A stretch of 64,000 bases of DNA from a virus (IMGVR_UViG_2508501111_000003:1-64000), one strand, 5' to 3'; numbered from the stretch's first letter, positions 16,402 through 42,639 are shown. Translations and numbers: made by a program. Notes: generated by a model not told the origin, from the sequence alone.

Positions 16402-16410
16402 GAGGGGTTC

Positions 16411-24416: not shown

Positions 24417-24657
24417 AGCAGAACATCCTTGTTGCTACCGAGCAATTGCCGTATCCATTCGCGTGGTGATGGTAATCCTAGGAACTGCAACTAACGAACA
24501 ACCTTACGCACATTTGAGGAATCCAATAAGTACCTATATTAATATATACACGTCTCTATAAAACTATCTCTTGCCTCATTGAATCCATATCTTTCTAACC
24601 GAATCCTAGCCAGAATGGTTGTGCGAAGTCATATAATCACCTTTATTTGGAGGATGT

Positions 24658-26064
24658 ATGCCCTACACACGGCGCGATATCCTGAAACTTGCGGCACTCG
24701 TTAGCCTTAGTCCATGGCTGCCTGCTTGTACACCCAATGATCCGAATACACCAACCATCAAGCCAACCACTACATCGAATAGCCCAGTAACGAGTGACAG
24801 CACCCCACAGGTCATCGTAATTGGAGCGGGAATTGCTGGATTAGCCGCTGCCGCCAAACTCCAAGCAAACGGCTATCGCGTCCAGATCATCGAAGGGCGC
24901 GATCGGATCGGCGGGCGCATTTGGACAAGCCGCACCTGGAACGATATGCCTGTCGATTTAGGGGCTTCGTGGATTCATGGAGTCACACAGAATCCCCTCA
25001 CCGATCTGGCAGATACTGCTAGGATTGAGCGAACACCCACCGATTATGAAAATAGTCTGGTCTATACCATGGAGGGTGATGAACTCGACGATGCCGCTGT
25101 GGAACAGCTTGAGGAGCAGTTGGTCACACTGCTGGATGCTGTGGCTGAGTTGGTTGAAGATACCGATGATATGTCACTCGCAGCGGCGATGCAGCAGGTT
25201 CTCGTTGAACAAGCTGAATCAATCGATCAACCACGCTTGAATTTCAGCATCAATAGCACGATTGAACATGAGTATGCTGCCGATGTCGAGGAATTATCAG
25301 CCCAGTATTGGGACAACGATGGGGAAGTTGTTGGGGGTGATGTGATCTTTCTTGATGGGTATGATCAAATCCTTGATCAACTCACGGCGGGCCTCACGAT
25401 CCACACTGGGCAACCCGTTAACGCAATCAATTACACTGCTGAATCAATCACGATCACAACCGATACCACTACGTTTGAAGCGGAGCACGTCATTATCACC
25501 GTTCCGCTCGGTGTGCTCAAACAGGGCCGTATTCAGTTCACTCCACCGCTCGATACCATAAAAACCGATGCGATCACCTTGCTCAGATCAGGGCTGCTCA
25601 ACAAGACATGGCTGCGCTTTGCAAGCGCGTTCTGGCCCAAGGAACCGGAGATCATTAACTATATTGATGAACAAAAAGGCCGTTGGGCCGAATTCCTCAA
25701 CATCTATCACTATACCGATAAACCGATCTTGCTCGGCTTTAATGCTGGTTCGTATGCTCGTATGCTTGAATCACGCAGCGATGCGGAGATTATTGCCGAT
25801 GGGATGCAAGTCCTGCGAACGATCTATGGGCAGGAAATTCCTGATCCTGAGGCGTGGCAAATCACCCGCTGGGGCGCTGACCCCTATGCATTTGGTTCAT
25901 ACTCCTTTTTGGTCGTTGGCGCAACCGATGCCCTGCGTGATGACCTTGCACAACCGATTGCTGGACGATTGTTCTTCGCGGGAGAAGCAACAGAACGCAC
26001 CTATCCCTTCCATGGAGCCTACCTCAGTGGATTGCGTGCCGCCGATGAGGTGATGCAGGCATAG
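24658..26064 (+). CDS. Flavin amine oxidase family protein, Tat lipoprotein
   Basis: TRRDILK + LPAC lipobox; IGAGIAG, EGRDRIGGRI, GASWIHG, FAGEAT, HGAYLSG. Confidence 0.92.
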   Translation: MPYTRRDILKLAALVSLSPWLPACTPNDPNTPTIKPTTTSNSPVTSDSTPQVIVIGAGIAGLAAAAKLQANGYRVQIIEGRDRIGGRIWTSRTWNDMPVDLGASWIHGVTQNPLTDLADTARIERTPTDYENSLVYTMEGDELDDAAVEQLEEQLVTLLDAVAELVEDTDDMSLAAAMQQVLVEQAESIDQPRLNFSINSTIEHEYAADVEELSAQYWDNDGEVVGGDVIFLDGYDQILDQLTAGLTIHTGQPVNAINYTAESITITTDTTTFEAEHVIITVPLGVLKQGRIQFTPPLDTIKTDAITLLRSGLLNKTWLRFASAFWPKEPEIINYIDEQKGRWAEFLNIYHYTDKPILLGFNAGSYARMLESRSDAEIIADGMQVLRTIYGQEIPDPEAWQITRWGADPYAFGSYSFLVVGATDALRDDLAQPIAGRLFFAGEATERTYPFHGAYLSGLRAADEVMQA

Positions 26065-26199
26065 ATTGAACTCCAATGATTAACGTTCACAGCCTAAAAC
26101 CACAAACGACCCGCTGGGGTCGCTTGTGGGAGAGAAGAGAGAGGAGAAGGTTTGACTTCAGTATACCAGAAGATGTGGGTTATCACTATTAGAATGTTA

Positions 26200-26673
26200 T
26201 TAATGCGCTCCACCCTCAGCATCGGTTGATGGTTGGGGATTGCCTGCTTGGAGCGATTTCCAACGTGTATAGTTCCCTTGAAAGGTATCTTGGCACATTG
26301 GTGCAGCCTCAAGTCCCCAAAGCAGATGTCGAATCGTTTCGGCGCGATCGCGCGTTTTATACATAATTCGTGCGTGGGGCCATGGCGCAGTTGCTGGCTC
26401 CGCCCATGCTTCAACTGTATACGCCCCTTGCCAACCAATAATACAGACTGACTCTTGATCGGGGTATGCTTCACGACGAAACGTTAAGTACATCATGCTT
26501 CTTCCAACAAGTAATGGCGTTGGATAGGGGATGACCACGAGATCGGCAAGCAGATCAAGATACATTATATAGACAGCTCGATAGGGATCATCCGGTTCGG
26601 ACGTGCTTATTGAGAATGTTAATTCTTCTGTCACTGTGCGGTTTTTGGTATTTCGATATTGATGGAGTTCCAT
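26200..26673 (-). CDS. Hypothetical partner of Replic_Relax protein
   Basis: Paralogue of 33433..33873. Confidence 0.75.
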   Translation of the reverse strand: MELHQYRNTKNRTVTEELTFSISTSEPDDPYRAVYIMYLDLLADLVVIPYPTPLLVGRSMMYLTFRREAYPDQESVCIIGWQGAYTVEAWAEPATAPWPHARIMYKTRDRAETIRHLLWGLEAAPMCQDTFQGNYTRWKSLQAGNPQPSTDAEGGAH

Positions 26674-26772
26674 CGATGCTCCTCGCTCCTATTCAGACTA
26701 TTGGCAATCAAAAGTATAGCAGCATGATGTATTGGTGGATAGCATGTCTGGTAGCTGCAGTTGCTCCATTCC

Positions 26773-27711
26773 TTATGCGATGATCTTCTCAAACCACGCT
26801 GCCCGTAAAAAGCGATGCGGCTGCTGCATGCGTTGGCCTTGCTTGGTGTACTGGGCTGTCCAGATCGGCGTGAGAATACCCGACTCACGCACCTCGTCGA
26901 TCGTCGTAATCAGCAATTGACTGCCAGGCCAGCCGATTTCCCACGCATCGAGCACCGCCCGTTTGCGGCGTTCGCTCGGCACGGTAAAGGCAATCAGCGG
27001 CCAGTTGTAGCGCCCTTCCCAATACTTCGAGCGATACAACTCCCCATACGAATGCGCCTTCCCCGTGATAATACTCAATTCCTCAGTTCCGCGATCAATT
27101 TCAATCGCATAGAGTTGATCAATTTGCTTTGATTGTTGACCAATCCCCAGCCACGGATAGAGTGACGAGCGCTCACAGTCGGGCTGCGTTGCATCGGCCC
27201 AGCGGCGCACCACGACGATGCCATCGGCGCGTGGCCGTGCGGTTGGGCCTAAGTCCATCTCAATATAACTACTCATTCCCACAATGCCAGGCACATACGG
27301 CAAGGACTGAATCAAGCTAGTGATGACCTCGGCATATTCAATCTGGTGTTCAGCTTGATGCTGGAGATTGACCATGGTGGGAGCCAGCCGCTCACTGCCT
27401 TCTTCGAGCATCGGAAATGCCTGTTTGACGATCTCCCAGCCGAGCGGCGTGAGACTATACAAACGGCCATGGCGTGTCCAGCCCAGCGCACCACGCGGGT
27501 CATAGCCATGCGATTGAAAGTGTTCGCAATAGGTGAGCAGCTTGGCATCGACGAGCTTGGACAACGTGCGATTAACCGTCTGAATCGTCACGGTAAACGG
27601 ATGACCCCACGCGGTACGCAGGTGGCGAGACAGCAAACGCCCAAGCCGAGCAACGAGCAACAGGATGTGCAACTCGATGGGATTGAGGCCAATAGCGAGC
27701 GATGAAGCCAT
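26773..27711 (-). CDS. Replication-relaxation (Replic_Relax-like) protein
   Basis: N-terminal wHTH (LLLVARLGRLLSRHL), HQIEYAEV, RPRADG, AIEIDRGTE; start 27711 by SD GAGGAGG and paralogue. Confidence 0.8.
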   Translation of the reverse strand: MASSLAIGLNPIELHILLLVARLGRLLSRHLRTAWGHPFTVTIQTVNRTLSKLVDAKLLTYCEHFQSHGYDPRGALGWTRHGRLYSLTPLGWEIVKQAFPMLEEGSERLAPTMVNLQHQAEHQIEYAEVITSLIQSLPYVPGIVGMSSYIEMDLGPTARPRADGIVVVRRWADATQPDCERSSLYPWLGIGQQSKQIDQLYAIEIDRGTEELSIITGKAHSYGELYRSKYWEGRYNWPLIAFTVPSERRKRAVLDAWEIGWPGSQLLITTIDEVRESGILTPIWTAQYTKQGQRMQQPHRFLRAAWFEKIIA

Positions 27712-27959
27712 GAACAACCTCCTCAGGATGAAAATGGTGGCTATCCAGCCTGTTAAAGAATGTCGGCACGACCAAACGGCCAGTTTAGGCCATTCTGATG
27801 GGCTATTCTTTTTTTGGCGGTTTGTGGGTGATAGGAATGCGCTCTGAATGCAGAATGAACACGGTTTGAACACTGAGAACCGAGAATAACCAAATGACCG
27901 TATTCGCCCCTCCCCGATAAACAGCCGCGTCTCTGTTGTGAGGTGCGGCTGATCTTCAC

Positions 27960-28226
27960 TTAATGATGGCCGATAGATGTTTGTTCGCGGCGGTAGCTGT
28001 GGTAGAGCAGCAGCATGCATAGTTTCAATTGCTCGTGGTGATACTGCTCCTGCATGCGCTGGGTTCGTTTTAAGTACCGACGCTTCATCATGCGGATATT
28101 GATGGGCTGGCGTTTGATGGCGGGTGTGGATCGCGTGGGCATGACAAGCGGTTTCTGGCGACTGGTGATCACGATGACCGAAGCAACAATAGCTACCAGC
28201 GTAATAACAATGATCAGTCCTTGCAT
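27960..28226 (-). CDS. Small single-TM basic protein
   Basis: MQGLIIVITLVAIVASVIVITSRQK; overlaps upstream stop. Confidence 0.55.
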   Translation of the reverse strand: MQGLIIVITLVAIVASVIVITSRQKPLVMPTRSTPAIKRQPINIRMMKRRYLKRTQRMQEQYHHEQLKLCMLLLYHSYRREQTSIGHH

Positions 28227-28834
28227 GAGGCAGCCGTCCCTTTCAGCACATCGCGCACCCCACGCACAAATTGGCGAATCATTGGCTCGGCACTCAAGGC
28301 CACCAGCGCGGCCAGCAATCCGCTCACGAGCGCAAACCACCAGCGATACCCAAACACATCATTCAACACTGTTTGGATATACCAGCCGGTTGCCGTGGCA
28401 TCGAGTGAACTAACGATCACGGCACAGGTCAATCGCATGCGATCGACGTGCACGAAAAAGTAGGGTACTTGCTGATACCAGCGTAGCTCGTTTGGCACAT
28501 TTACCCCGCGCCAGAGATGTTGGCCAACAAATGAAACCACCACATGACTCAAGCATCCGATCACAAACCAATCGAGCACTCCAGCATGGACCCATATGCC
28601 GTGGTATTGAAGCCAAAGACCACCGAGCACGACGGCGCTCGCCGTGGCAATCCCATTGGCAATCCATAAGACCACCCAAATCAACAGCATGCTCGCCTCC
28701 GCAATTAAACGGCTGCGGTTTACGAACTGCCAGCGGGTTTTCACCGTCGCGTTTTGGGGCAAGCCTCGCGCAACCAACACACGGTTGCGATGGTGCATAT
28801 AGCCAAGTGGGCTTCGGGTTTTAAGACTCATCAT
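28214..28834 (-). CDS. Multi-TM membrane protein (206 aa)
   Basis: Four hydrophobic segments; AGGAG SD. Confidence 0.7.
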   Translation of the reverse strand: MMSLKTRSPLGYMHHRNRVLVARGLPQNATVKTRWQFVNRSRLIAEASMLLIWVVLWIANGIATASAVVLGGLWLQYHGIWVHAGVLDWFVIGCLSHVVVSFVGQHLWRGVNVPNELRWYQQVPYFFVHVDRMRLTCAVIVSSLDATATGWYIQTVLNDVFGYRWWFALVSGLLAALVALSAEPMIRQFVRGVRDVLKGTAASCKD

Positions 28835-28897
28835 TGCTCCTAAAACAGCGAAACCACATCACTCCGATGTGGTTTCGCGCAATATGCCAAGCTTTCG

Positions 28898-29776
28898 TTA
28901 GTTGATTGCGTTGGCATTCTCCCAAATAATTTCGTAGCCGCTTTCGCCAGCTTCGACCATCGCATACCGCTGCAAGGTATCAAAGGCTTTCGTGCCACTG
29001 GAGGTTGACGTAAAACCAAGCAAGCGGCGAAGGTCTTGTTTGGTTTTGAACTCGGTAATGTTCTTTTCGTAGAGAACTTTCAGGATTGCGTGAATATCAT
29101 CAGCACTGATCGCACTCTTGCCATTGGTGGTGCGCAGAGCGGCTGATTCATCTGGTTCAGGCAACATTGCGATGGTTTCGTTGTGGCTTTCTGATGGCTC
29201 AAAACGCTCCTGCATGGCCGTTTGTCGTTGCTGTTTGCGTTGGGCTTCGAGGCGCTTGCGCTCGTTCTCAGCATCAACGCGCTCAAGGTGTTTAATATAG
29301 TCGATGGTTTGGCGCAGGCGATTCGGGGCGGTTGCGCTGGCATAGATGATCAGGGCAACGAAAGAACCAAATGTGCCCGCAATCAGATAGCCAAAGAAGC
29401 CCATGCTTGGCGGCATGTGGATGATCAAGGATGCGGTATTGAAGGTAACTTCCACGGCCAACGCAATGATGAACGCAAGCCAGTTCCAAAAGCCAATGGG
29501 TTGTTTATGCTTGAGTTGAATGCCGATGTAAGCGCTCAACCACATCAAGGCCAAGTCAATGCCCAGCACCATGGCCATGGTTGCGCAGGCCACGATAAAC
29601 CACGCGAAACCAACTAAACCATGGGTGAACGCAAGCATGGTGAATGCCATATGCACAAACGAAACCGCAATGAACATGTTGTTGAGTCTACGAAAGTTGG
29701 TGATTAAATTCTGAATATCATTGTGTTCATCAGGTGGTGGTTTTTCATACTCAATCGCGCCTCGGAATTTTGTCAT
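28898..29776 (-). CDS. 4-TM + coiled-coil + C-terminal HTH-like protein (DUF2637/Spd-like architecture)
   Basis: TM block, ENERKRLEAQRKQQRQ, KQDLRRLLGF...; start 29776 after AGGAG. Confidence 0.6.
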   Translation of the reverse strand: MTKFRGAIEYEKPPPDEHNDIQNLITNFRRLNNMFIAVSFVHMAFTMLAFTHGLVGFAWFIVACATMAMVLGIDLALMWLSAYIGIQLKHKQPIGFWNWLAFIIALAVEVTFNTASLIIHMPPSMGFFGYLIAGTFGSFVALIIYASATAPNRLRQTIDYIKHLERVDAENERKRLEAQRKQQRQTAMQERFEPSESHNETIAMLPEPDESAALRTTNGKSAISADDIHAILKVLYEKNITEFKTKQDLRRLLGFTSTSSGTKAFDTLQRYAMVEAGESGYEIIWENANAIN

Positions 29777-29987
29777 AGACTGGTTGCTCCTGAAGCCTAA
29801 AACGAAAAACACCGCCATTGCTGACGATGTTTTTCTCACGCTTATTCGGTTTCAACCAGAACGTGTCGTTGGAGCGGGAGACGAGCCTGTCAACGGCTTA
29901 ATTCATCATACGATCATCTGTGAACGCTAGGATATTCGGCGAACAACACCACCGCAATGGGTGGTGTTGTTTGGTTTAGGAGCACCA

Positions 29988-30206
29988 ATGGATCAACTAA
30001 ATAAACACGGTCGTTGGTATTGCAGCACCTGTTGCCATGTGGCCACGACCGTTAGTGACTATAAAGCCCATAAAGCAACCCATGCGATGATTGGCGAACA
30101 GCATGACCCCACGGCCCAACCAGCCAGTTTGATTGAGCTGCCGATCGTGCGCGTCTGGCAACACGCCACCCGTTTAACCGTTGTGAAACAAAAGGGGGCC
30201 GCCTGA
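29988..30206 (+). CDS. Small protein with classical C2H2 zinc finger
   Basis: WY-C-x2-C-x12-H-x3-H: CSTC CHVATTVSDYKA H KAT H. Confidence 0.65.
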   Translation: MDQLNKHGRWYCSTCCHVATTVSDYKAHKATHAMIGEQHDPTAQPASLIELPIVRVWQHATRLTVVKQKGAA

Positions 30207-31063
30207 TGCTTGCTTCCCATAATCGTCAATCGATTAAGTCGTTGATCATTTTCGGTAGCGGCTTGGCCTATGTACTTTCGATCGTGATGATGGAGGTCTT
30301 GGTTGGCTTTGCCCTCGGTGATATCAGCGATTCACTGATCATGCAAGCCTTAGTTGGTATTGGAATTCTAGGAACCTTTCTGAGTGCTTGCTTGATTCCG
30401 TTGGCATTGCACTATTGGCTGGCACCGGGAACACAATTCATTGTAGGGATTCTCTTTTGGTTGATAGATGTGGTCGTTTTGGCGATTAATGCCACCACCA
30501 GCTACCAACTAATTAAGCAGCTTGAATTATCGAGCTTTTTTACGATGTGGCAATTAGCGATTCCCTTTATTGGTCCGGCGATTACGATTATCGGCTGGGG
30601 CTTGGTCTATCTTGCCGATGATGGACAAAAGGATCGTCAGTCAGATCGCTTGCTGGAAACATCAAAACGGGCTTTGATGCGTGAGGCGGAGTATGCGCGG
30701 GTGAGTGCTGAGCATGAGTTTGCCATGAAGCAAATTGCCCAGGTGAAGCAATCGCTAATGATGGCATTACAGGCAAGCGATATTGCCAAGGTTGCCGAGC
30801 AGGGCGCGTATAACAGTGCCTTGACTATTACGCGCCAAATTGTTGGATTGCCGATTGATACCACCATTCCACCATCACGATCAGCCGAGTTGCCACCAGT
30901 GCCACCAGCATTGCAGCCTGTTGTACCACCCATGCCACCACCGCGATCAACCGAATTGCCACCATTACCAGTATCATCGGTTCCCAATCAGCAGCCCATG
31001 CAGAACGAGGATGATCATTGGACATTGCTTTTTGAGCAGCAAGCTAACCACCCAAACCCATAG
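30206..31063 (+). CDS. 4-TM + coiled-coil + Pro-rich protein
   Basis: TM block, helical region, PPSRSAELPP/PPPRSTELPP repeats. Confidence 0.75.
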   Translation: MLASHNRQSIKSLIIFGSGLAYVLSIVMMEVLVGFALGDISDSLIMQALVGIGILGTFLSACLIPLALHYWLAPGTQFIVGILFWLIDVVVLAINATTSYQLIKQLELSSFFTMWQLAIPFIGPAITIIGWGLVYLADDGQKDRQSDRLLETSKRALMREAEYARVSAEHEFAMKQIAQVKQSLMMALQASDIAKVAEQGAYNSALTITRQIVGLPIDTTIPPSRSAELPPVPPALQPVVPPMPPPRSTELPPLPVSSVPNQQPMQNEDDHWTLLFEQQANHPNP

Positions 31064-31503
31064 TGCCAGTGATTGCCGTTGGTGGAAGTACAACACTTCC
31101 ACCAATGCCACCAATGCAGGAACTGGCAGATGTCGTGTCACCATTGGTGGCAATGAGGGTTGATGATGGTGGCAACATCGGATTTCTTGATCTTCCGCTC
31201 TTAATAGATACGTTCAATCCGTTGGATTGGCGTACCGAGGTGAAAGGTAATGGGCAATATTGGCAATGGCGAAAAGGCAGCGGGAGCAACCGTAGCAGTC
31301 GCTACGGTGGAACCTTCGACCAACTCAGTGACGAGCGCAAAGCGGCCTACGAAGCGCACAAACAACGCCGTGCTGCGACAGATCAAACCGGTGAGCCAAC
31401 AGGAAGCGCTGGAGATGTTGCGGAGCGCCTTGGTGTATTTACAGCTGAGCGGAGTGCAAGCGCGGTATCGGACGACCGAGGTGGGCTTACTGCTTCAGCT
31501 TGA
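31063..31503 (+). CDS. Downstream ORF, probable -1 frameshift extension of 30206..31063
   Basis: Pro-rich start, GQYWQWRKGSGSNRSSRYGG motif; no clear SD; slippery CCCAAAC at 31051. Confidence 0.55.
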   Translation: MPVIAVGGSTTLPPMPPMQELADVVSPLVAMRVDDGGNIGFLDLPLLIDTFNPLDWRTEVKGNGQYWQWRKGSGSNRSSRYGGTFDQLSDERKAAYEAHKQRRAATDQTGEPTGSAGDVAERLGVFTAERSASAVSDDRGGLTASA

Positions 31504-31634
31504 TGCGGTCTATCTCGATGGCGTGCGCTTCGCCGTGCGCGATTGCATCTGATAATGCAGCTATACATCTATTTGTATAATCTTAGGCTATCCACTAAAG
31601 TATGTGAGTGAACAGTGTATTTTAAGGAGGATTC

Positions 31635-32093
31635 ATGAAGTCGAATCGTCGGTTTATCTACTTATTGCTTTGTTTGATATGCCTTGGTAGTCTTTCAACG
31701 CCCTCATCATTTGCGAATGATTCAGAGCCTGTTGATGATGATGTCATTGTTGATGACACGCGAGGTTGTCCCGGTACAGGTTATGCGTATGTGGCCATCG
31801 AAGAAAACCAAGGTGGACAGCGTTATTGGAGAACGTCTGATCATTATGCCGATGGATGTATTAAAAACAATCGTATCAAGATCAAGATTACAACAGGCTG
31901 CTTAACCGTTCGGATTCGGCTTCTTGAGCGGTATACGAATCCACCAGTTACGGTTGGCGTATTCGATTATCAAACACGATGTGCTATGCTTAATAAGCCA
32001 TTCCAGTCATTTGGTGATCCTATTTTGCCGGGTACTCGGTATTGGCTGGAAATGTCGTATAAACCCCATGATTTACTGATTGTTCGTGATTAA
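31635..32093 (+). CDS. Secreted Cys-containing protein
   Basis: Signal peptide MKSNRRFIYLLLCLICLGSLSTPSSFA; AAGGAGG SD. Confidence 0.75.
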   Translation: MKSNRRFIYLLLCLICLGSLSTPSSFANDSEPVDDDVIVDDTRGCPGTGYAYVAIEENQGGQRYWRTSDHYADGCIKNNRIKIKITTGCLTVRIRLLERYTNPPVTVGVFDYQTRCAMLNKPFQSFGDPILPGTRYWLEMSYKPHDLLIVRD

Positions 32094-32393
32094 GTGGCAT
32101 TCATAATTCTCTTATGATGGGCTTGCGCTACTCTAGTAGCGCAATTTTATTTTTAGAACGAACTATAACAAGGTTTATGATTGAATAGTCCTTACTACTT
32201 AGGGCGGCCATTTGCTCCATTCCCCTAATAACCGTTCAAACCGTGTTCATTCTGCATTCAGAGCGCATTCCCATCACCCACAAACCGCCAAAAAAAGAAT
32301 AACCCATCAGAATGGCCTAAACTGGCTGTTTGGTCGTGCCGACATTCTTTAACAGGCTGCATAGCCACCGTTTTCATCCTGAGGAGGTTGTTC

Positions 32394-33332
32394 ATGGCAT
32401 TATCGCTCTCCGTTGGCCTCAATCCCATCGAGTTACACATCCTGCTGCTCATTGCTCGCCTTGGGCGCTTGCTGTCTCGCCACCTACGCACGGCGTGGGG
32501 CCATCCGTTTACTGTGACAATTCAGACGGTCAATCGCACGTTGGTCAAGCTCGTCGATGCCAAACTGCTGACCTATTGCGAACACTTTCAATCGCATGGC
32601 TATGACCCGCGTGGTGCGTTAGGCTGGACGCGCCATGGCCGCTTATATAGTCTTACGCCGCTCGGCTGGGAGATCGTCAAACAGGCCTTTCCCATGCTCG
32701 AGGAAGGCAGCGAGCGACTGGCTCCCACGATGGTCAATCCCCAACATCAAGCCGAGCATCAAATTGAATATGCCGAAGTCATCACCAGTTTGATTCAGTC
32801 ATTACCCTACGTGCCTGGCATTGTCGGGATGAGCAGTTATATCGAGATGGACTTAGGCCCAACCGCACGGCCACGCGCCGATGGGATTGTCGTAGTCCGC
32901 CGCTGGGCTGATGCGACGCAACCAGATTGTGAGCGCTCGTCACTCTATCCATGGCTGGGGATTGGTCAACAATCAAAGCAAATTGATCAACTCTATGCCA
33001 TTGAGATTGATCGCGGAACCGAGGAGTTGAGTATTATAACGGGGAAAGCCCACTCGTATGGGGAGTTGTATCGCTCGAAGTATTGGGAAGGGCGGTATAG
33101 TTGGCCGCTGATTGCCTTTACGGTGCCAACCGAACGGCGCAAACGGGCCGTGCTTGATGCGTGGGAAATCGGCTGGCCTGGCAGTCAATTGCTGATTACG
33201 ACGATCGACGCGGTGCGCGAGTCAGGCGTGCTTACACCGATTTGGACAGCCCAGTATACGAAACACGGGGAACGGATTCAGCAGCCGCATCGCTTTTTGC
33301 GGGCTGCATGGTTTGAAAAGATTGTGGCGTAA
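32394..33332 (+). CDS. Replication-relaxation (Replic_Relax-like) protein, copy 2
   Basis: 312 aa, same motifs as 26773..27711. Confidence 0.8.
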   Translation: MALSLSVGLNPIELHILLLIARLGRLLSRHLRTAWGHPFTVTIQTVNRTLVKLVDAKLLTYCEHFQSHGYDPRGALGWTRHGRLYSLTPLGWEIVKQAFPMLEEGSERLAPTMVNPQHQAEHQIEYAEVITSLIQSLPYVPGIVGMSSYIEMDLGPTARPRADGIVVVRRWADATQPDCERSSLYPWLGIGQQSKQIDQLYAIEIDRGTEELSIITGKAHSYGELYRSKYWEGRYSWPLIAFTVPTERRKRAVLDAWEIGWPGSQLLITTIDAVRESGVLTPIWTAQYTKHGERIQQPHRFLRAAWFEKIVA

Positions 33333-33432
33333 GAAATGGGTGGAGAATCGCATTGACTAAACCATGCGATTCATTGATATATCAAGCTGCTATACTGAAG
33401 GACGCACAGCCCACTATGAGCGAGGAAGATCG

Positions 33433-33873
33433 ATGGAACTCCATCAATATCGAAATAGCAAAAATCGCACGATTATTGAAGAATTAACGTTCTCGGTAAA
33501 CACGTCCGAACCAGATGATCCCTATCGAGCCGTCTATATCATGTATCTTGATCTGCTCGCCGATCTGGTGGCCGTCCCCTATCCAACGCCATTATTTGTT
33601 GGAAAGAGCATGACGAACTTAATATTTCGTCGCGAAGCATACCCTGATCAAGAGTCAGTCTGTATTATTGGCTGGCAAGGGTGGTATACAGTTCAAGCAT
33701 GGGCAGAGCCAGCGACTGCGCCATGGCCCGACGCACGAATTATGTATAAAACACGCGATCGCGCCGAAACGATTCGGCATCTGCTTTGGGGACTTGAAGC
33801 TGCACCACTGTGCCAAGATGCTATTCAAGGGAACTATACGCGGTGGAAATCGCTCCAAGCAGGCAATCCCTAA
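33433..33873 (+). CDS. Partner protein copy 2 (11 aa shorter: CAA to TAA)
   Basis: GNP* vs GNPQPSTDAEGGAH* in left copy. Confidence 0.75.
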   Translation: MELHQYRNSKNRTIIEELTFSVNTSEPDDPYRAVYIMYLDLLADLVAVPYPTPLFVGKSMTNLIFRREAYPDQESVCIIGWQGWYTVQAWAEPATAPWPDARIMYKTRDRAETIRHLLWGLEAAPLCQDAIQGNYTRWKSLQAGNP

Positions 33874-34132
33874 CCATCAACCGATGCTGAGGGTGGAGCA
33901 CATTAATAGTCTTCTAATAGCAATAAGCCGTATGTTCTGGTATACTAACGTCAAACCTTCTCCTCTCTCTTCTCTCCCACAAGCGACCCCCAGCGGGTCG
34001 TTTGTGGTTTTAGCAGACCATTGCCAAGAGTTTATCCTTCGCGATGCCTCTGGTTATAAAGTTTATCTCAATAACTACTGCAAACCGCGCTTCACTCCGA
34101 GGCGCGGTTTTGTTTTTAGGAGCAATCAGCCA

Positions 34133-34369
34133 ATGAGCGATATGACCGTTACCGATTTGTTTTGTAGTGCTGGTGGTAGTTCAACGGGCGTAGTCAATGC
34201 TGGGGCTACCGTGCGCATGGCACTCAACCACTGGAAACTGGTAATCGAAACCAATAATATGAACCACCCTGATACCGACCACGACTGCACCGACATTCAG
34301 GCTTGTGATCCGCGTCGCTATCCGCGCACGACAATCTTAATTGCATCTCCGGAATGCGTTAATGAGTAG
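34133..34369 (+). pseudogene. Truncated phage-type C5 methyltransferase
   Basis: DLFCSAGG (motif I), ASPEC (catalytic Cys), then stop; AGGAG SD. Confidence 0.85.
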
Positions 34370-34449: not shown

Positions 34450-35172
34450 TTAATTAGGATAATACTTTATTAAATCTTGCATGTTCGTTATTAATACAAA
34501 TAAATTGGTTGAAAATCCGATAAATTGAAAAACCAAATTTAACCATATTAGTAAGTTTTTTTTGCGCCTTAAGTTCTCTATAATGAGTAAAGGAGCATAA
34601 GCTACAACAGAAAATGTTATAAATATCAAGAAAACTACTGAGGATATAGATTTTTTCGGTATAGTTGTATCTTTTATGTTATTTATTCCAATTATTCGTG
34701 ATGATATATTTATATTTGATTGATTATTTATTAATATCTTAATTGTAATCTTATCCTCTGGGTTTAGTAATACAGGATCTAGTGTGATTCTTTTATTTGT
34801 TACGGATAAGGGTATTGTGAGATTTTCAGGGGAAACATCAACTATATTAGCAGAGAGGATTTGTTCTTGATTATCAATTTCTATAGTAATTGGCATTTCA
34901 TAATCAGATTTTATGATTGGAATATCACCATCATTAGTTATTTCTAAGAGAATGAGCCTTACATCTTCTACGGGAGTACCATCAAATGTAATCTGTATTT
35001 TCTCTTTGGCTTCTTCATTAATACTAACGATTTGACTACTTGATATGATTGCATAACTGAGACTCTTCACGTCTTTATCAATACCACTCCATACTATTGG
35101 AACTACCATACTAAGTGCAGCAAGAATTAATCCGATAGTACCTTGAAGGTTGCTTTGTTTTTCTTCTGTCAT
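34450..35172 (-). CDS. AT-rich membrane protein (N-terminal TM, beta-rich domain, two C-terminal TM)
   Basis: Hydropathy pattern; low GC. Confidence 0.65.
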   Translation of the reverse strand: MTEEKQSNLQGTIGLILAALSMVVPIVWSGIDKDVKSLSYAIISSSQIVSINEEAKEKIQITFDGTPVEDVRLILLEITNDGDIPIIKSDYEMPITIEIDNQEQILSANIVDVSPENLTIPLSVTNKRITLDPVLLNPEDKITIKILINNQSNINISSRIIGINNIKDTTIPKKSISSVVFLIFITFSVVAYAPLLIIENLRRKKNLLIWLNLVFQFIGFSTNLFVLITNMQDLIKYYPN

Positions 35173-35421
35173 TTGGTATCCCCTCTGATTAATTAATTTG
35201 ATTCTGGTGTTTTTTACAATAACTCTCAATAATGACCTATCAAAGAATTGTAAGGATTATAATAGTTTCTCCTTTTGACTTCAAGCAATATACTATAGTA
35301 TACCCAGTCAAAACCTTAAAAAATGGGAATATAGTTATGTAAATCATTCATTGAGGACGGCATCAATACTCTTTATGCAACAGAGCCGCTCTAGTCGATG
35401 ATGACTAGAGCGGCTCTTCAT

Positions 35422-35739
35422 CTAATTACCTGATTCTTCTCGTACTCGTGCAGCGATATAATTAAACTTGGTAACCGCTTCGTAATAAGGCAAGAACGGG
35501 TGAAGTACAGGGTTGAGTTTACTGCCCTGTTTCGGGTTGAATTGAACACACCATGCTTGATTCGCCGGAATATAAAAGGCAAGGAGATCACCATTAAACT
35601 CTAACAATGGTGGGGTTGGCGTTGAAACAAGTTTCAAGTTTTCTTCAAGGTTTGCGATTGCATCATGGATGTTATCGATTGCAATCCTGCCTGCTTGAAT
35701 GTCCACAATGTGTTGCTTGGCGTACTCTTCAAAAGTCAT
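35422..35739 (-). CDS. Hypothetical protein
   Basis: AGGAG SD; ends at 15-bp hairpin AGAGCCGCTCTAGTC/GACTAGAGCGGCTCT. Confidence 0.6.
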   Translation of the reverse strand: MTFEEYAKQHIVDIQAGRIAIDNIHDAIANLEENLKLVSTPTPPLLEFNGDLLAFYIPANQAWCVQFNPKQGSKLNPVLHPFLPYYEAVTKFNYIAARVREESGN

Positions 35740-35870
35740 AACAGCTCCTTTGTTGGATTATGACTATACCAGAGTATCACACAGAATTATAGTGAGCATA
35801 CAATTCAGCTTGACGTGCATGATAGGATAAATCATCGCTTATTGATCCTGCTTCATTAATGGAGGTAGTT

Positions 35871-35987
35871 ATGGGCAACAAGGCTTATGATCGAGCCAGA
35901 GGTTATTCTGATGCCATAAATAACAATACCACCGTTTCTTTCGTTGGATCACGCGAGTATTATGAAGGCTTCAAGGTAGGTATGTAA
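35871..35987 (+). CDS. 38-aa small ORF
   Basis: GGAGG SD; MGNKAYDRARGYSDAINNNTTVSFVGSREYYEGFKVGM. Confidence 0.4.
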   Translation: MGNKAYDRARGYSDAINNNTTVSFVGSREYYEGFKVGM

Positions 35988-36082
35988 GGATAATAGCTTA
36001 AGTTCTACTTCATCATCCTCAGAGTCTTCTCCCTACATAGACATGAGAAGTGAATCATCATATCAATAAAGCGACTCAGGTA

Positions 36083-36239
36083 TAAAGGGGAGCCGTCGAT
36101 CGTACAGACCGCTGCGATCCGGTGGTGGTTAGTCAATGAGCCAACGATCAACGCATCAGAGATCGCCCGGCGGCTGGGCGCGAATAAGAAAAATAGATTG
36201 CGCTGGGTTCGGGAGATTAATGTACAGGAAGAAAAATAA
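36083..36239 (+). pseudogene. C-terminal HTH remnant
   Basis: Startless EPTINASEIARRLGANKKNRLRWVREI. Confidence 0.45.
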
Positions 36240-36844
36240 TGGAAGCTTTTTTACTATCGTTTGGCAAAGAAATTATAGCCCTCGTCTCGATAGCCCTTGG
36301 AATGTCAGCATCATTCTATGGGCAAAGTATCGTAAAAAAAGAGATTGAAATCAAAAAAAATCAAATTCAAGAGGCTGATAAAAAAGCTGAAAAAGATCCA
36401 GAAAAAATAAAACCTTCGTGGGATGCTGCACGCACCCGACTAGAATTATATTTTGATATGAATATTCGACAAGTTAATTTTATTTTCTGGTTGAGTGTTA
36501 CAGTCATGATCCTTGGATTTGGTATTGTCATTTTTGGAATAACCCAAGCTATGACTTCAGAGGCAACTTTACCCGCCATTATTGCCAGCTCCGCTGGAAT
36601 TATTATGGAGATTATTGGCGCTACCTTTATGGTGATGTATAAATCAACGATGGAGCATGCTGGAAGTTATACAAAAACCCTAGAGCGGATGAACTCTGTA
36701 GGGATGGCAATGCAGATCTTGGATACGATGCCCGATGATCCCGATCAGGGAGCACTCAAAAACACGACTAAAACAGAGGTAATTAAAATATTAATGCAAC
36801 AGGCACATACGCCAGAGGAGCAAGCAACGTCGAAACAGCCATAA
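36239..36844 (+). CDS. Membrane protein resembling TRADD-N-associated 2TM domain
   Basis: LYFDMNIRQVNFIFWLSVTVMILGF...SAGIIMEIIGATFMVMY pattern. Confidence 0.55.
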   Translation: MEAFLLSFGKEIIALVSIALGMSASFYGQSIVKKEIEIKKNQIQEADKKAEKDPEKIKPSWDAARTRLELYFDMNIRQVNFIFWLSVTVMILGFGIVIFGITQAMTSEATLPAIIASSAGIIMEIIGATFMVMYKSTMEHAGSYTKTLERMNSVGMAMQILDTMPDDPDQGALKNTTKTEVIKILMQQAHTPEEQATSKQP

Positions 36845-36871
36845 ACCGATGATATAAGCAAGGAGACCTTT

Positions 36872-37390
36872 ATGAGTGACGATAATCAATATAGCGATAT
36901 TCCACATGCGGCCTTACGTTCCTATATTGAACAAAAGGGTTGGGTTCGCAGGTATCCAAATCTAACAGGTGGCAAACCGATAGGGTATGTTTACTTTGAC
37001 GATCGATATATCGATGCAAATATCTTGAAATTTGTCGAGCCTCTTAATCTAGCAAATGCTATCCATTTTGCTCCAAAAGTACCAAAACAAGTTGAACAAT
37101 TCATACCCAATAATCCAATGGGTTCTCTGCGTTTAAATATTCAAAATACCATCTTTTATTTTGTAATACCGAAGCAAGAACTTGAAGATTTATTCAACAA
37201 ATCGGGCATGTCTGTGGCAGAGGTTATTAAATCGCACAATGAAGAAAAAATTAGAGAGATGGGAATTATATATAGTGACCATCAAGGAGTGCTTGATAGT
37301 GCTATTGGTAAGCATGTTGTTATTCCTAAGGGTGGAGGGTTTGTTGATCTAGATGGCTCCGAAATACATCTGCCTACAGTTATTCGCTAA
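36872..37390 (+). CDS. Hypothetical protein (172 aa)
   Basis: AAGGAG SD; ends at bidirectional hairpin 37395-37428. Confidence 0.65.
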   Translation: MSDDNQYSDIPHAALRSYIEQKGWVRRYPNLTGGKPIGYVYFDDRYIDANILKFVEPLNLANAIHFAPKVPKQVEQFIPNNPMGSLRLNIQNTIFYFVIPKQELEDLFNKSGMSVAEVIKSHNEEKIREMGIIYSDHQGVLDSAIGKHVVIPKGGGFVDLDGSEIHLPTVIR

Positions 37391-37394
37391 AACT

Positions 37395-37545
37395 AAAATC
37401 CCAGTCAATAAATATTGGCTGGGATTTTCTTTCACTGAAACTACTTCAAATTTTCGCGCCGTGCCTCATAGCACGCTAACCGTGGGCCACGTGCTTCGGG
37501 TGATACGCGTAACTCACCACTGGCAGCATCATAGCTAGTTACGGC
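37395..37545 (-). pseudogene. Diverged orphan tail-gene 3' end plus terminator
   Basis: I*AVTSYDAASGELRVSPEARGPRL aligns ungapped to TLAETSVNLVTGEVSVTPEAPIKQL (10/25 identical); hairpin AAAATCCCAGTCAATA-AA-TATTGGCTGGGATTTT. Confidence 0.55.
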
Positions 37546-37832
37546 TTATATGACTGGCCATTAGACCTGTTGATTATTGATTATATTATCCGCAGTTTTC
37601 AAAGCATGCTTCTTTGGTTATAAGCCCTTCCAAGAACTCTGTTAATTAGTACTATGGTACGTAGTTATAGAACATATGTGATAGCTATTAGCTGTTAGGA
37701 AATTATTCTTATACTGGAGTATAACATCTGTCGGGGTATAAGGGGAAGAGCTGCATCTATTAATTAACTATCTGTACTTCTATGATAGGTCTCATATTCT
37801 TATAGTTCCACCATACTACATGTGAGGCCGCT

Positions 37833-40610
37833 ATGCAACCTCTTGAGTTTGTGCGAAAATGGCGAGGTATTCAGGTCAACGAACGACGTGCATATTATGA
37901 GCATTTTACCGACCTCTGTTCTTTAGTTGGTGCTAAAACCCCGCTTGAGGAAGATCCCACAGGAACATTTTATACCTTTGAGGCCGGTGTTACAAAACTC
38001 AATGGTGGAAAAGGATGGGCTGATGTTTGGAAAAAAGGGTACTTTGCAATTGAATATAAAGGCAAGCATGGGAATCTTAACCGCGCTTATGATCAACTTC
38101 TCCAATATCGTGAGGCTCTATTAAATCCTCCACTCCTAATCGTCTCCGATCTTGACAGTCTCGTTATTCATACAAACTTTACCAATACAGTCAAAAAGGT
38201 AACAACACTTACTTTAGATGAAACATTAACAAGAAATGGCCTTGATACAATTCGAAGTATTTTTTATGCTCCTGATACCTTTCGATCTCCAGTCACACCA
38301 GAGCGGGTAACCGAAGAAGTTGCTGCAAAGTTCGCCCGCTTAGCCCAGCTTATTACCCGCTATGAAAAACACACTTCTCCGCAAGAAATTGCACATTTTT
38401 TAACACGATTATTATTTTGTTTATTTGCAGAAGATGTCAATTTACTTCCAAAGGATATCTTCTCTCGTTTAGTGACTCAAACACGTGGGAAATCCTCTGC
38501 GTTTGCAGCCCAACTCAGCCAGCTTTTCAATGTCATGACTACAGGAGGATGGTTCGGCATTGAGGAGATACGGCATTTTAACGGGTCGCTCTTTGATAAT
38601 GCAACGGTTTTACCCATGGATAGTGAAGCACTTGATATTCTAGTGGATATCTGCTCCTATGATTGGTCATCGATTGAACCAGCAATTTTTGGAACTCTGT
38701 TTGAACGTTCACTCGATCCGGCGAAACGGAAGCAACTGGGTGCACACTATACCAGTAAAGATGATATTTTACTGTTAGTCGAACCAGTTGTTATTCAACC
38801 TTTAAGGGAAGAATGGAGTAAGCAAGAACAGGTTATCGAGGGATTAGTTACCCAGCGTAATGAAACAGTGGGTAATGATGTAACCAAAATTAATCGGCAA
38901 ATTGAATTCCATATCAATACCTTCTTGCATAAACTGAGATCAATAAAAGTCCTTGATCCTGCCTGTGGAAGCGGCAATTTTCTCTATATCGCATTAAAAT
39001 TGTTGCTCGATTTGGAAAAGGATGTTATTCGTTTTGGTGCTGATGCAGGCTTGCCGTTACAAATCCCACAGGTCAATCCAGAGCAATTTCTTGGGATGGA
39101 AGTTAATGCTTATGCTCATGAGTTAGCTCAAATTACGATTTGGATTGGCTATATTCAGTGGATGAAAGAAAATGGATTCGGAAATTTATCGGAACCTATC
39201 TTGAAGTCCCTCAAAACAATTCATCGTATGGATGCGATTTTAGCTTTTGATGCTGACGGGAATAGCATTGAGCCTGCCTGGCCTCAGGCGGATTACATTA
39301 TTGGGAATCCACCGTTTTTGGGTGGCAATAAGATTCGGCAAGAGCTGGGTGATGGCTATGTTGACGCATTGTTTAGCCGTTATGCGGATCGTGTTCCTGC
39401 ATTTGCTGATCTGGTGTGTTACTGGTTTGAAAAGGCTCGCGCAATGATTGGCAGTGACATAACTCGACGAGCTGGTTTTATTGCAACCAATTCAATTCGG
39501 GGTGGGTCGAATCGAAAAGTTTTAGAGCGTATCAAAACGTCTGGTGATATTTTTATGGGTTGGTCAGATCGCCCGTGGATTCTTAATGGAGCGGCAGTAC
39601 GGGTGTCAATGGTGGGATTCGATAAAGGCGAAGAAATAATACATAGTTTGAATGGGATGATAGTTCAATCCATTAATGCAAACCTAACCCAAGACATTGA
39701 TACAACTAAGGCTTTAATCCTTCCTGAAAATAAAAATATTATTTTTGGAGGAACAAAGAAAGGTGGAAAATTTGATATTACACAAGGTATATATGATGTA
39801 TTGATGCAGAGTCAAAATAATCCCCATGGCCGTCCCAATAGCGATGTAATTAAGCCATGGGTCAATGGACAAGCGTTATTAGGAAAGGGAGAAAAACGAT
39901 GGGTTATTGATTTTGGCGTAGATATGTCTCTGGAGGATGCAAGTCAGTATGAAAAAATATTTGAGTATATCAAAAAAGAAGTTTATCCTATTCGTATAAA
40001 TAATAGGATGGAGAGCAGAAGCAAGCATTGGTGGCTTCATTCTTTTACAGCCCCATCAATGCGGCATGCAGTCGCCACTATCTCAAGATATATCGCTACG
40101 CCTCGGGTATCAAAATACCGACTTTTTGTATGGGTTGATAGCAACACAATCCCAGATGATGGGACATATATTGTTGCCCGCGACGATGACTATTTTATGG
40201 GTGTGTTGCATTCAAAAATCCATGAGTTATGGGCATTGCGGCAAGGAACATTTCTTGGGGTTGGAAACGATCCACGCTATACCCCAACCTCAACCTTTGA
40301 AACCTTTCCCTTCCCATGGCCACCAGCGAAGGAACCCAAGGATTCACCGCTGGTTAACGCCATTGCCGAGGCAGCAAAAGAGTTAGTTGAGAAGCGGGAT
40401 CGGTGGCTGAATCCGGCTGGAGCAACCGAGGCCGATTTGAAAAAGCGCACGTTGACCAATCTCTATAACGAGCGGCCAACGTGGCTCGATTTGGCGCACA
40501 AAAAGCTGGACAAAGCGGTGTTTGCGGCCTATGGGTGGCCGGATACCTTGACCGATGATGAAATCCTTGGCCCTTTGCTGGTCCTCAATCACGATCGGGC
40601 GGCAGGCTAG
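37833..40610 (+). CDS. MmeI-like type IIL/IIG restriction-modification enzyme (N6-adenine MTase + nuclease + TRD)
   Basis: ADVWKKGYFAIEYK nuclease motif, LGAHYT, LDPACGSGNF, GNPPF. Confidence 0.88.
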   Translation: MQPLEFVRKWRGIQVNERRAYYEHFTDLCSLVGAKTPLEEDPTGTFYTFEAGVTKLNGGKGWADVWKKGYFAIEYKGKHGNLNRAYDQLLQYREALLNPPLLIVSDLDSLVIHTNFTNTVKKVTTLTLDETLTRNGLDTIRSIFYAPDTFRSPVTPERVTEEVAAKFARLAQLITRYEKHTSPQEIAHFLTRLLFCLFAEDVNLLPKDIFSRLVTQTRGKSSAFAAQLSQLFNVMTTGGWFGIEEIRHFNGSLFDNATVLPMDSEALDILVDICSYDWSSIEPAIFGTLFERSLDPAKRKQLGAHYTSKDDILLLVEPVVIQPLREEWSKQEQVIEGLVTQRNETVGNDVTKINRQIEFHINTFLHKLRSIKVLDPACGSGNFLYIALKLLLDLEKDVIRFGADAGLPLQIPQVNPEQFLGMEVNAYAHELAQITIWIGYIQWMKENGFGNLSEPILKSLKTIHRMDAILAFDADGNSIEPAWPQADYIIGNPPFLGGNKIRQELGDGYVDALFSRYADRVPAFADLVCYWFEKARAMIGSDITRRAGFIATNSIRGGSNRKVLERIKTSGDIFMGWSDRPWILNGAAVRVSMVGFDKGEEIIHSLNGMIVQSINANLTQDIDTTKALILPENKNIIFGGTKKGGKFDITQGIYDVLMQSQNNPHGRPNSDVIKPWVNGQALLGKGEKRWVIDFGVDMSLEDASQYEKIFEYIKKEVYPIRINNRMESRSKHWWLHSFTAPSMRHAVATISRYIATPRVSKYRLFVWVDSNTIPDDGTYIVARDDDYFMGVLHSKIHELWALRQGTFLGVGNDPRYTPTSTFETFPFPWPPAKEPKDSPLVNAIAEAAKELVEKRDRWLNPAGATEADLKKRTLTNLYNERPTWLDLAHKKLDKAVFAAYGWPDTLTDDEILGPLLVLNHDRAAG

Positions 40611-40724
40611 GCGGGGAATGGTGGGGGGCGTGCGCGTTTATCAAGCAGCACGCTCCGGCTTGGTAGCAGTGCGGGTTTTACTTTTGTCCACTATCCCTCA
40701 AGATGCTGGAATTTTATCGCTAAA

Positions 40725-40776
40725 ACACCACGACCCTGATTCGGGCTGTGCTATCAACCGACCAGGGTCGTGGTGT
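40725..40776. repeat. Hairpin family Y, copy 3 (loop CTGTGCTATCAA)
   Basis: ACACCACGACCCTG..loop..CAGGGTCGTGGTGT; T-run on minus strand. Confidence 0.75.
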
Positions 40777-40827
40777 GAATTGTCATTTTGCTCGTGAGCC
40801 TGCGCAGTATCCTACGAGCGATTGCAG

Positions 40828-40941
40828 TATATCATAGCGACTTTGGGGCTTACAAGAGCCGCCGATTGGCACTGTCAAGGCTGATCGGTGGCTTTCACCC
40901 AACTTGCGCTACGAGGGCGCACACGGTTGCTTAAGCAGCTT
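40828..40941 (-). other. Structured element X, copy 2
   Basis: Reverse complement aligns with 22132..22240. Confidence 0.75.
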
Positions 40942-40953
40942 GAGTGTCATAGG

Positions 40954-41904: not shown

Positions 41905-42086
41905 GATGCCCTCCCAGCATTATCCTGTCAGAACAACAATGCGGCGTTAATGATAAATATATGACATCTTCGCTTGACCTACTAGGCTGCATGAACCAAT
42001 ACATGCCGTTTAATACTCTATTAAGAGTGTTGGTACACTCAAATGGCCGCTAGGCCGCTCTGGCAGTGGTGCGAGGGGTGTTTGTG

Positions 42087-42141
42087 GTAGTGCAGTCGTA
42101 GTGAAGCTGTAGTGCAATGGTAGTGAAACGGTAGTGCAGTG
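42087..42141. repeat. Five tandem 11-bp repeats (iteron-like)
   Basis: GTAGTGCAGTC GTAGTGAAGCT GTAGTGCAATG GTAGTGAAACG GTAGTGCAGTG. Confidence 0.85.
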
Positions 42142-42210
42142 CGATTGAGGGATTGACCAAACGGCTGTGGCATGATTGAATTGTGGGGAAACATTTTGTT
42201 GGGGGTGGCT

Positions 42211-42540: not shown

Positions 42541-42602
42541 ACGACAAAACGACGGTCGCCGGAGCGCACACGCCGTTTTGTGGAAGCATCACTTCATATC
42601 AA

Positions 42603-42631: not shown

Positions 42632-42639
42632 CTTCTTTA

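Follow-up and report, generated by a model that had tools for sequence, protein, structure and literature searches.

The 64,000-nucleotide viral stretch IMGVR_UViG_2508501111_000003:1-64000, referred to here as the window, carries two mirrored copies of a small cassette built around a protein of the Replic_Relax/MOBC family, which we call RR. The host is a filamentous Herpetosiphon whose 6.8-Mb genome comprises the chromosome C1, the 340-kb megaplasmid C2 and the 99-kb plasmid C3. The cassette is a discrete unit, bounded by terminators and made up of the RR gene, an array of four repeats and a 27-nucleotide (nt) core, and its two copies belong to related temperate siphovirus-like prophages, the remnant A and prophage B. 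We describe the anatomy of the cassette, its family membership, the conservation of its cis site, the selection acting on it and its relationship to plasmids. Mobilisation is the best reading of these features: with middling confidence, we propose that a relaxase and origin-of-transfer (oriT) module from a plasmid lineage resides in back-to-back prophages at a tRNA-Gly and would render the phage DNA mobilisable in trans, the binding, nicking and transfer steps being what we infer. The elements on which the argument turns are the following.

26773-27711, minus strand (ATG at 27711): RR_L, 312 amino acids (aa), winged helix-turn-helix (wHTH) plus PD-(D/E)XK Replic_Relax/MOBC-like protein, in remnant prophage A
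27718-27896, minus strand: cis region of RR_L, with CATTTGG box, four TTCA repeats (27835-27870), 27-nt core (27750-27776) and ribosome-binding site (RBS)
32208-32393, plus strand: cis region of RR_R, with box (one mismatch), four TTCA repeats (32235-32270), core (32329-32355) and GAGGAGG RBS
32394-33332, plus strand: RR_R, 312 aa, Replic_Relax/MOBC-like protein, in prophage B

Both RR proteins are true members of the Replic_Relax/MOBC family. They match the PF13814 (Replic_Relax) hidden Markov model (HMM) with 34-35 bits against a curated gathering cut-off of 25.3 (E 2-4e-8), in agreement with a preliminary description of the window, which had placed such a protein in each of the two mirrored arms; an N-terminal wHTH and a PD-(D/E)XK domain with conserved residues are further traits that they share with the family. 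PF13814 has been placed in the PD-(D/E)XK superfamily (PMC3424549) and corresponds to the MOBC relaxase family (PMC5357655, PMC12857230). The model has six matches genome-wide, and an exhaustive HMMER search returned RR homologues in 97 representative clusters only. Three residues, H122, D163 and E204, never vary across 25 aligned homologues, and four others (E151, D206, K218 and Y222) hardly do. In the full-length AlphaFold model (pLDDT 84.9), residues 5-103 align to MarR/PadR wHTH proteins (Z 10-12, rmsd 1.8-3 Å). Since wHTH proteins dominated fold searches with the full-length protein, a separate model of the C-terminal domain was built (pLDDT 89.6). This domain has the order alpha-beta-beta-beta-alpha-beta, and its top matches in the PDB were Cdn1 and BstEII (Z 7.0), SdaI (6.5), and Cfr10I, Can2, NucS and the nickase N.BspD6I (about 6). 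The best matches are mostly restriction-type PD-(D/E)XK nucleases, PaqCI ranking first with Foldseek, and no solved relative of the RR nuclease domain turned up when PDB sequences were searched with a profile.

The gene is maintained across the genus and is firmly phage-linked. Homologues in H. geysericola, H. giganteus, H. llansteffanensis, H. sp. NSE202 and a Chloroflexia metagenome-assembled genome (MAG) share 87-91% identity with RR. The four chromosomal copies have diverged to a dS of 0.47-0.76 at a dN/dS of 0.04-0.09; to judge from these sequences, RR is under strong purifying selection, and both window copies are intact. Of 11 loci taken from other Herpetosiphon and Chloroflexia genomes and from IMG/VR, nine have a clear homologue of the 559-aa tail gene at a distance of 6-9 kb from RR, the two genes converging, and the remaining two give a weak match only; the phage linkage foreseen in the preliminary description therefore held. 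The order is constant, with RR followed by variable cargo and then by the convergent tail genes.

The region upstream of RR is as distinctive as the protein. About 170 nt upstream of every phage-type RR gene are conserved across species, in the order CATTTGG box, four TTCA/TTC motifs, A-rich tract, near-invariant block and RBS. In nine aligned copies the TTCA/TTC motifs are invariant and spaced by exactly 11 nt, with variable spacers, and the repeat pattern has two matches in the window where none is expected. The 27-nt core, TTTGGTCGTGCCGACAYTCTTTAACAG, lies about 60-90 bp from the repeat array and occurs five times in the genome (none in the reversed control), each time upstream of an RR gene, namely in the four prophage copies and on megaplasmid C2. 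Single-strand folding of the cis region revealed no significant structure (z -0.22). In copy 3 (C1:769298-770485; also loci L001/L008), a 1.1-kb insert encoding a protein with six transmembrane (TM) helices separates the core from RR.

The occurrence of the core on C2 leads to the plasmid relatives of RR. C2 carries a cluster resembling a type IV secretion system (T4SS) at C2:141874-162500 (loci L026, L018), which encodes a 991-aa VirD4-like type IV coupling protein (T4CP; PF02534), a 729-aa VirB4-like DUF87 ATPase, an 878-aa unknown protein, an RR that is 55% identical to the phage RR, and an NlpC/P60 hydrolase, with a peptidase C25 neighbour. The cluster type is also found in H. gulosus and is conserved in five of eight Herpetosiphon genomes, the C2-type RR and C2-type T4CP co-occurring in the same five. 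The C2 locus and the plasmid-type locus of H. gulosus share the box-repeats-core layout and have different 11-bp repeats, GAACCTTGTCC in three perfect copies on C2 and a GTTGCA type in H. gulosus. In a maximum-likelihood tree, phage-type RR is sister to C2-type RR (support 100/99), in a clade that includes a T4CP-adjacent sequence. Since the same layout and core precede this sister relaxase in the C2 T4SS cluster, the cassette most likely derives from the C2 plasmid lineage. A second MOBC-type transfer module is present in the same cell: on C3 (C3:62-2927, 92207-93721), a divergent Replic_Relax gene directly follows and overlaps a gene for a TraG/TrwB-type T4CP, with an FtsK-like ATPase 6.5 kb away. 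The distant RR homologue P0023 likewise adjoins a T4CP-like gene. The GC skew of C2 and C3 is monotonic and uninformative on origin.

These features suggest a mechanism in which the RR wHTH would bind the array of four repeats, set 11 bp apart, that immediately precedes the RR gene, and the nuclease domain would nick in or near the 27-nt core some 60-90 bp away, in the manner of pAD1 TraX at its oriT; TraX binds five direct repeats located 70-120 bp from nic (PMC12857230). Repeat-specific binding would let RR act in cis on phage DNA, and a coupling protein and T4SS encoded by a plasmid could then move the phage or prophage DNA in trans. The cassette would thus combine the nic-core of the plasmid with a repeat specificity of its own, and the phage genome, even as decayed remnants and together with its defence cargo, could also be conjugated through a plasmid T4SS without a phage-encoded DNA pump. 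This would explain the continued movement of defence-rich prophage remnants and blur the line between transduction and conjugation. The wider claim, that temperate tailed phages of filamentous Chloroflexota carry a megaplasmid-derived relaxase/oriT cassette and double as integrative mobilisable elements, is one we advance tentatively and regard as rather doubtful.

Several observations weigh against mobilisation. The nuclease-fold matches of RR are modest (Z ≤7), and a weak PHROG match (phrog_9381, 'replication initiation by nicking', E 0.0015) points elsewhere. No Replic_Relax/MOBC member carried by a phage is known to bind, nick or transfer DNA. Iteron-like repeats would equally fit a replication origin or an autoregulatory operator. 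We found no FtsK, PF01580, PF12696 or T4CP match in the window or in or near any prophage RR, and the prophages likewise contain neither a coupling ATPase nor a T4SS gene, so that a helper could act only in trans; the preliminary description had already noticed that an FtsK/TraB or VirD4 ATPase was missing from the window. A resident helper is not always present, because three of eight Herpetosiphon genomes have phage-type RR and no detectable C2- or C3-type T4CP. Finally, a deletion mutant of the corresponding cassette in Bacillus phage 0305phi8-36 had no laboratory phenotype (PMC3357382).

Some of these points would be accommodated by a role in replication, in which RR binds the iteron-like repeats and nicks the core for rolling-circle or plasmid-like replication of the excised phage, or for replication of the prophage in situ. 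The family name covers plasmid replication (PMC3424549), the four phased direct repeats adjoin an A-rich tract, the PHROG match refers to nicking at initiation, and RR is kept in all eight Herpetosiphon genomes, the three that lack a detectable T4CP included. Prophage B, however, already has an early replication and recombination set that includes a DnaC/IstB-like loader and AAA_24, and close phage relatives of the same architecture without RR use a Prim-Pol/D5 primase-helicase. Moreover, the nearest non-phage relatives of RR are found in T4SS clusters or beside a T4CP rather than in recognisable replicons, and the cassette is a terminator-bounded unit of an accessory region. We consider a replication role unlikely.

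The position of the cassette invites a further explanation, namely that RR is a lysogen-expressed interference or regulatory factor, a DNA-binding nuclease or repressor directed against incoming conjugative plasmids or rival phages with the shared core, or else an autoregulator of cargo expression. The cassette borders defence-rich DNA encoding an MmeI-like restriction-modification (RM) enzyme and a CyanoTRADDas_TM protein, it is intact in remnant prophage A, and the core is common to phage and megaplasmid. The repeat arrays that would confer specificity nevertheless differ between phage and plasmid, so that each RR would be expected to act on the element that carries it; in addition, RR has no PADLOC family match, and the core is always in cis to an RR gene. 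Interference thus seems improbable to us.

What follows RR in each arm bears on another possibility. The features of this region are as follows.

26200-26673, minus strand: partner_L, 157 aa, after RR_L, an ORFan restricted to Herpetosiphon
33433-33873, plus strand: partner_R, 146 aa (169 aa from an ATG at 33364), after RR_R
34082-34110, plus strand: terminator-like hairpin after partner_R, ending the RR cassette
34133-34369, plus strand: remnant of a truncated C5-cytosine methylase (dcm), 78 aa, interrupted by low-GC defence cargo and full-length in L004/L006

The partner was correctly recognised in the preliminary description as a conserved companion of RR: the two copies are under purifying selection (dN/dS 0.225). 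Its homologues are confined to Herpetosiphon, it has no Pfam, PHROG or PADLOC match, and it does not resemble the gene that follows the C2 RR. It is also facultative, being present in three of the 11 loci, with a Dcm-type methylase in its place in three others. That methylase gene directly follows RR in L004, L006 and L010, and together with the PD-(D/E)XK fold of RR and the remnant at 34133-34369 it would be consistent with a type II RM pair in which RR is the nuclease. This is hardly credible, however. The methylase is truncated in prophage B and none is annotated beside RR_L in prophage A, yet neither RR gene is disrupted and purifying selection acts on both; phages that lack RR have a methylase at the equivalent position; the plasmid paralogues of RR have no methylase; and RR satisfies the Replic_Relax HMM.

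The mirror arrangement of the two cassettes is the outcome of two integrations into one tRNA gene. According to the open reading frame (ORF) listing and Pfam, two gene sets diverge from 29839/29961. The left arm runs on the minus strand in the order L1 (28898-29776/29839), L2, L3, RR_L (26773-27711) and partner_L (26200-26673), and the right arm on the plus strand in the order R0, R1, R2, R3, RR_R (32394-33332) and partner_R (33433-33873). RR and partner form inverted repeats (26094-27871 and 32234-34013) of 89-90% nucleotide identity, and the genes nearer the mirror centre show no similarity between the arms. As the preliminary description had it, both arms run outward from the centre toward phage tail genes; these belong to related prophages and begin at a distance of 8-8.6 kb. 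The centre itself holds the attachment (att) site.

29870-29885, minus strand: att core, a 16-nt duplicate of the tRNA-Gly(TCC) 3' end, forming the left boundary of prophage B and the right boundary of remnant A

This tRNA-Gly 3' end, TGGAGCGGGAGACGAG, has exactly two exact matches in the 6.8-Mb genome, in direct orientation: window positions 29870-29885, between L1 and R0, and C1:1624283-1624298, within an intact tRNA. The complete tRNA-Gly(TCC) occupies C1:1624283-1624357, equivalent to window coordinates 84909-84983 and about 55 kb to the right of the att copy. Because the 16-mer occurs exactly twice, prophage B can be delimited as window position 29886 to about 84908 (55 kb). A large serine recombinase (507-aa ORF, C1:1622892-1624412; PF00239, E 2e-36) lies 19.5 kb past the window end, and a second is encoded at C1:608867-610393; the two are 29% identical to one another. 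Both ORFs extend into the 3' end of a tRNA gene encoded on the opposite strand, tRNA-Gly(TCC) for the first and tRNA-Lys for the second, and since the recombinase genes run antisense through the end of their target tRNA, attP must overlap the end of int. No tyrosine integrase or rve transposase was found near the prophages. With repeats at its ends and a recombinase at one of them, prophage B has the make-up of a tRNA-integrated temperate phage of the serine-integrase type. The idea that the arms stand where an integrase would be expected was accordingly mistaken: the integrase is at the far end of prophage B, by the tRNA-Gly and outside the window.

Each arm is thus the end of a prophage away from the integrase. 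The two prophages are related and occupy the same tRNA-Gly in opposite orientations, prophage A being the older remnant; in the circular phage, an arm sits just after int-attP, on the early strand. The order of events can be read from a Chloroflexia MAG locus (L004), in which a complete tRNA-Gly lies 36 nt from the start of the L1 homologue, with a spacer as in the window, and 1 kb beyond the tRNA is syntenic with the right flank of prophage B. Remnant A must therefore have adjoined the tRNA first, and B later integrated into the reconstituted tRNA end. An origin of the mirror by inversion between the two RR repeats was rejected, the copies of the tRNA end being direct repeats, as simple integration predicts. 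The att cores of A-type and B-type phages must be inverted relative to gene order, which could reflect mosaic attP-int modules or orientation-free recombination by the serine integrase.

Prophage B reads, from its left end, att, R0-R3, RR cassette, defence cargo and tail-to-terminase genes on the opposite strand, followed by a CRISPR/XRE region, early genes, the large serine integrase and the tRNA. The stretch from the window end to the integrase holds five XRE repressors and an early operon (AAA_24, DnaC/IstB-like loader, MazG). Related prophage copies in the window comprise a complete one, with tail-to-terminase genes at 42620-62400, and remnants at 14243-18090 and 1-1762. The cargo at 34450-42620, between RR cassette and tail genes, is low-GC, defence-type DNA that holds the MmeI-like RM enzyme (925 aa, 37833-40610) and the CyanoTRADDas_TM protein (36239-36844). 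A further full prophage copy (copy 2) is located at C1:608.9-659 kb; there the block of RR, cargo, tail and terminase genes is flipped with respect to the integrase and R1/R2 homologues, the latter lying upstream of the terminase and not of RR. Beside the left arm, an amine-oxidase gene (24617-26204) has a 95%-identical duplicate at C1:1527943-1529537, 10 kb upstream of the window.

The genes between att and the RR cassettes differ between the arms and encode mainly membrane, secreted and small proteins.

27960-28226, minus strand: L3, about 88 aa, single TM helix, conserved with L2 upstream of RR in L004-L006 and L010
28214-28834, minus strand: L2, 206 aa, three or four TM helices (hydropathy scan)
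28848-28878, minus strand: terminator-like hairpin with 14-bp stem and T run, dividing L1 from L2-L3-RR_L
28898-29776, minus strand: L1, 292 aa, four TM helices, charged coil and C-terminal helix-turn-helix (HTH)-like domain, first gene of prophage A, beside att
29988-30206, plus strand: R0, about 72-81 aa, zinc-finger-like (C-x2-C-x12-H-x3-H), first gene of prophage B
30206-31063, plus strand: R1, 285 aa, four TM helices, coil and proline-rich tail, with no sequence relation to L1
31063-31503, plus strand: R2, 146 aa, soluble, with no function assigned by sequence
31635-32093, plus strand: R3, 152 aa, with signal peptide (hydropathy scan), probably secreted
32123-32144, plus strand: terminator-like hairpin, dividing R0-R3 from the RR cassette

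Each arm had been described as an operon of TM or secreted proteins, led by a 4-TM/coiled-coil protein with a DNA-binding end and closed by a terminator, and this description survives in part. A hydropathy scan gave about four TM helices and a charged coil in both L1 and R1, L2 and L3 have TM segments and R3 a signal peptide; a C-terminal HTH is plausible in L1 only, since R1 ends in a proline-rich tail. A terminator closes the right arm (34082-34110), and none was found after the partner in the left arm. The arms are not single operons, because strong terminators split each of them, at 28878-28848 on the minus strand and at 32123-32144 on the plus strand. An arm is a mosaic of independent accessory units: hhalign comparison of the L1 family with R1 and L2 detected no homology among the three; in metagenomic phage contigs of 38-45 kb that hold no Replic_Relax gene, the L1 homologue comes directly after a large serine recombinase and an 82-aa gene, is followed by methylases and converges with the tail genes; and in prophages of H. 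giganteus and H. llansteffanensis and in copy 2, RR is preceded by about 8 kb of soluble early-type genes without TM genes.

This mosaic structure is relevant to the notion, put forward in the preliminary description, that the TM-coil-HTH and other membrane proteins form with RR a single Spd-like machine that would spread phage DNA along the filament without particles. The layout of L1 (four TM helices, coil and HTH-like tail) and the filamentous host agree with it; an Atlas structure search with L1 ranks DUF2637 clusters first, and a search by features finds one SpdB_N cluster among look-alikes that are mostly viral and bear HTH_24. Propagation by translocation has also been proposed for phage MobC operons (Pathria et al., PMC3357382). 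Yet the Atlas TM-scores are weak (0.42-0.46), and the DUF2637 HMM matches neither L1, L2 nor R1 (E <0.1) nor any of 11 L1-family members (E <5), on which grounds these proteins were rejected as DUF2637/Spd members; a DUF2637 search of 41 related genomes gave no match, but it was silent in 14 named control genomes too and is uninformative. The TM genes are cut off from RR by terminators, either can be present in the absence of the other (L1 homologues in RR-less phages, RR in prophages with no TM genes), L1, R1 and L2 are mutually unrelated, and no FtsK_SpoIIIE/TraB-type translocase motor matched within the prophages. A joint machine of this kind is therefore very improbable. Of the proposed spreading or mobilisation module, mobilisation persists as the best reading; a self-contained spreading machine, for which there is no ATPase, does not.

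The membrane and secreted proteins at the att end are probably expressed in lysogeny or early in infection, and our guess for their role is exclusion or DNA anchoring. The L1 family has invariant polar residues within its TM helices (H42, D74, Q87, Q92, E109, N113, Y145, S147 and T149), which suggests a role beyond membrane anchoring, perhaps that of a channel or an enzyme. Searching PDB sequences with an L1 profile yielded nothing meaningful; PHROGs gave no match for the TM genes, the partner, a 316-aa ORF or a 122-aa ORF, and PADLOC none for RR, the partner or the TM genes. R0 is a candidate recombination directionality factor or regulator. An R0-type zinc-finger-like protein is the first gene after attP/int and also occurs in L005/L006 (7678-7923); in L022/L023 an 82-aa gene with one faint Pfam match corresponds to R0 in its position after the integrase.

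MOBC relaxases on phages have been known since 2012, when Pathria et al. reported Bacillus phages whose MobC-like relaxases are accompanied by a coupling ATPase and membrane proteins, and proposed propagation by DNA translocation (PMC3357382); the phage/integrative and conjugative element hybrid offered in the preliminary description is thus an idea with a precedent. Phages with this 'DNA translocation operon' are 0305phi8-36, SPO1, GBSV1, BV1 and Gamma/Cherry/Fah/Wbeta, and in the temperate members the MobC operon adjoins the integration genes (PMC3357382). Bacillus siphoviruses with Replic_Relax, FtsK and TrbC cassettes have also been reported (PMC9658697). As in those phages, the Herpetosiphon cassette contributes a MOBC/Replic_Relax wHTH-nuclease as a non-structural accessory gene of a tailed phage, near the integration module of temperate members and with membrane proteins nearby. 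In contrast to the Bacillus operon, it has a relaxase and no adjacent coupling or FtsK-type ATPase, its membrane genes are set apart by terminators, independently distributed and demonstrably separable from RR, its host belongs to the Chloroflexota rather than the Bacillota, and its cis site is held in common with a resident conjugative megaplasmid.

Among plasmid relaxases, pAD1/pAM373 TraX and CloDF13 MobC resemble RR in joining an N-terminal wHTH to a restriction-endonuclease-like catalytic domain. The TraX oriT (PMC12857230) has short direct repeats apart from a conserved region that could hold nic, and, as at the TraX and MobC oriT sites, repeats vary and the core is conserved across related elements, with the plasmid paralogues of RR adjoining a T4CP. 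Similarity to RR is at the level of the Pfam family only, the Herpetosiphon site has four repeats instead of five and a putative nic region only, and the RR cassette resides in a phage without its own T4CP. L1 has two partial counterparts. Streptomyces Spd/DUF2637 proteins (PF10935) share with it four TM helices, a coil, a C-terminal HTH-like domain and a place in a mobile element of a filamentous bacterium, but L1 has no HMM match to them, a weak structural similarity and no TraB partner, and its family is a phage gene found just after the serine integrase, with or without RR. The phi29 protein p16.7 is a membrane-anchored, coiled-coil, DNA-binding organiser of phage DNA replication; by analogy only, L1 shares its TM-coiled coil-C-terminal DNA-binding architecture and its nature as an early-strand phage gene, whereas p16.7 has one TM helix and is much smaller.

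Set against the known phage MobC cassettes, the variant described here counts as new because of its Chloroflexota host, the absence of an ATPase and a defined cis site whose core is common to a resident conjugative megaplasmid. The 'mirror' that first drew attention to the locus resolves into two prophages in one tRNA-Gly, and what remains is a minimal cassette with a single relaxase gene, a facultative partner and a well-defined cis site. Its four diverged copies under strong purifying selection, and an invariant core that recurs at the relaxase of a conjugative-type cluster on the cell's own megaplasmid, make the Herpetosiphon locus an unusually clean test system for the phage-borne MOBC relaxases first recognised in Bacillus.

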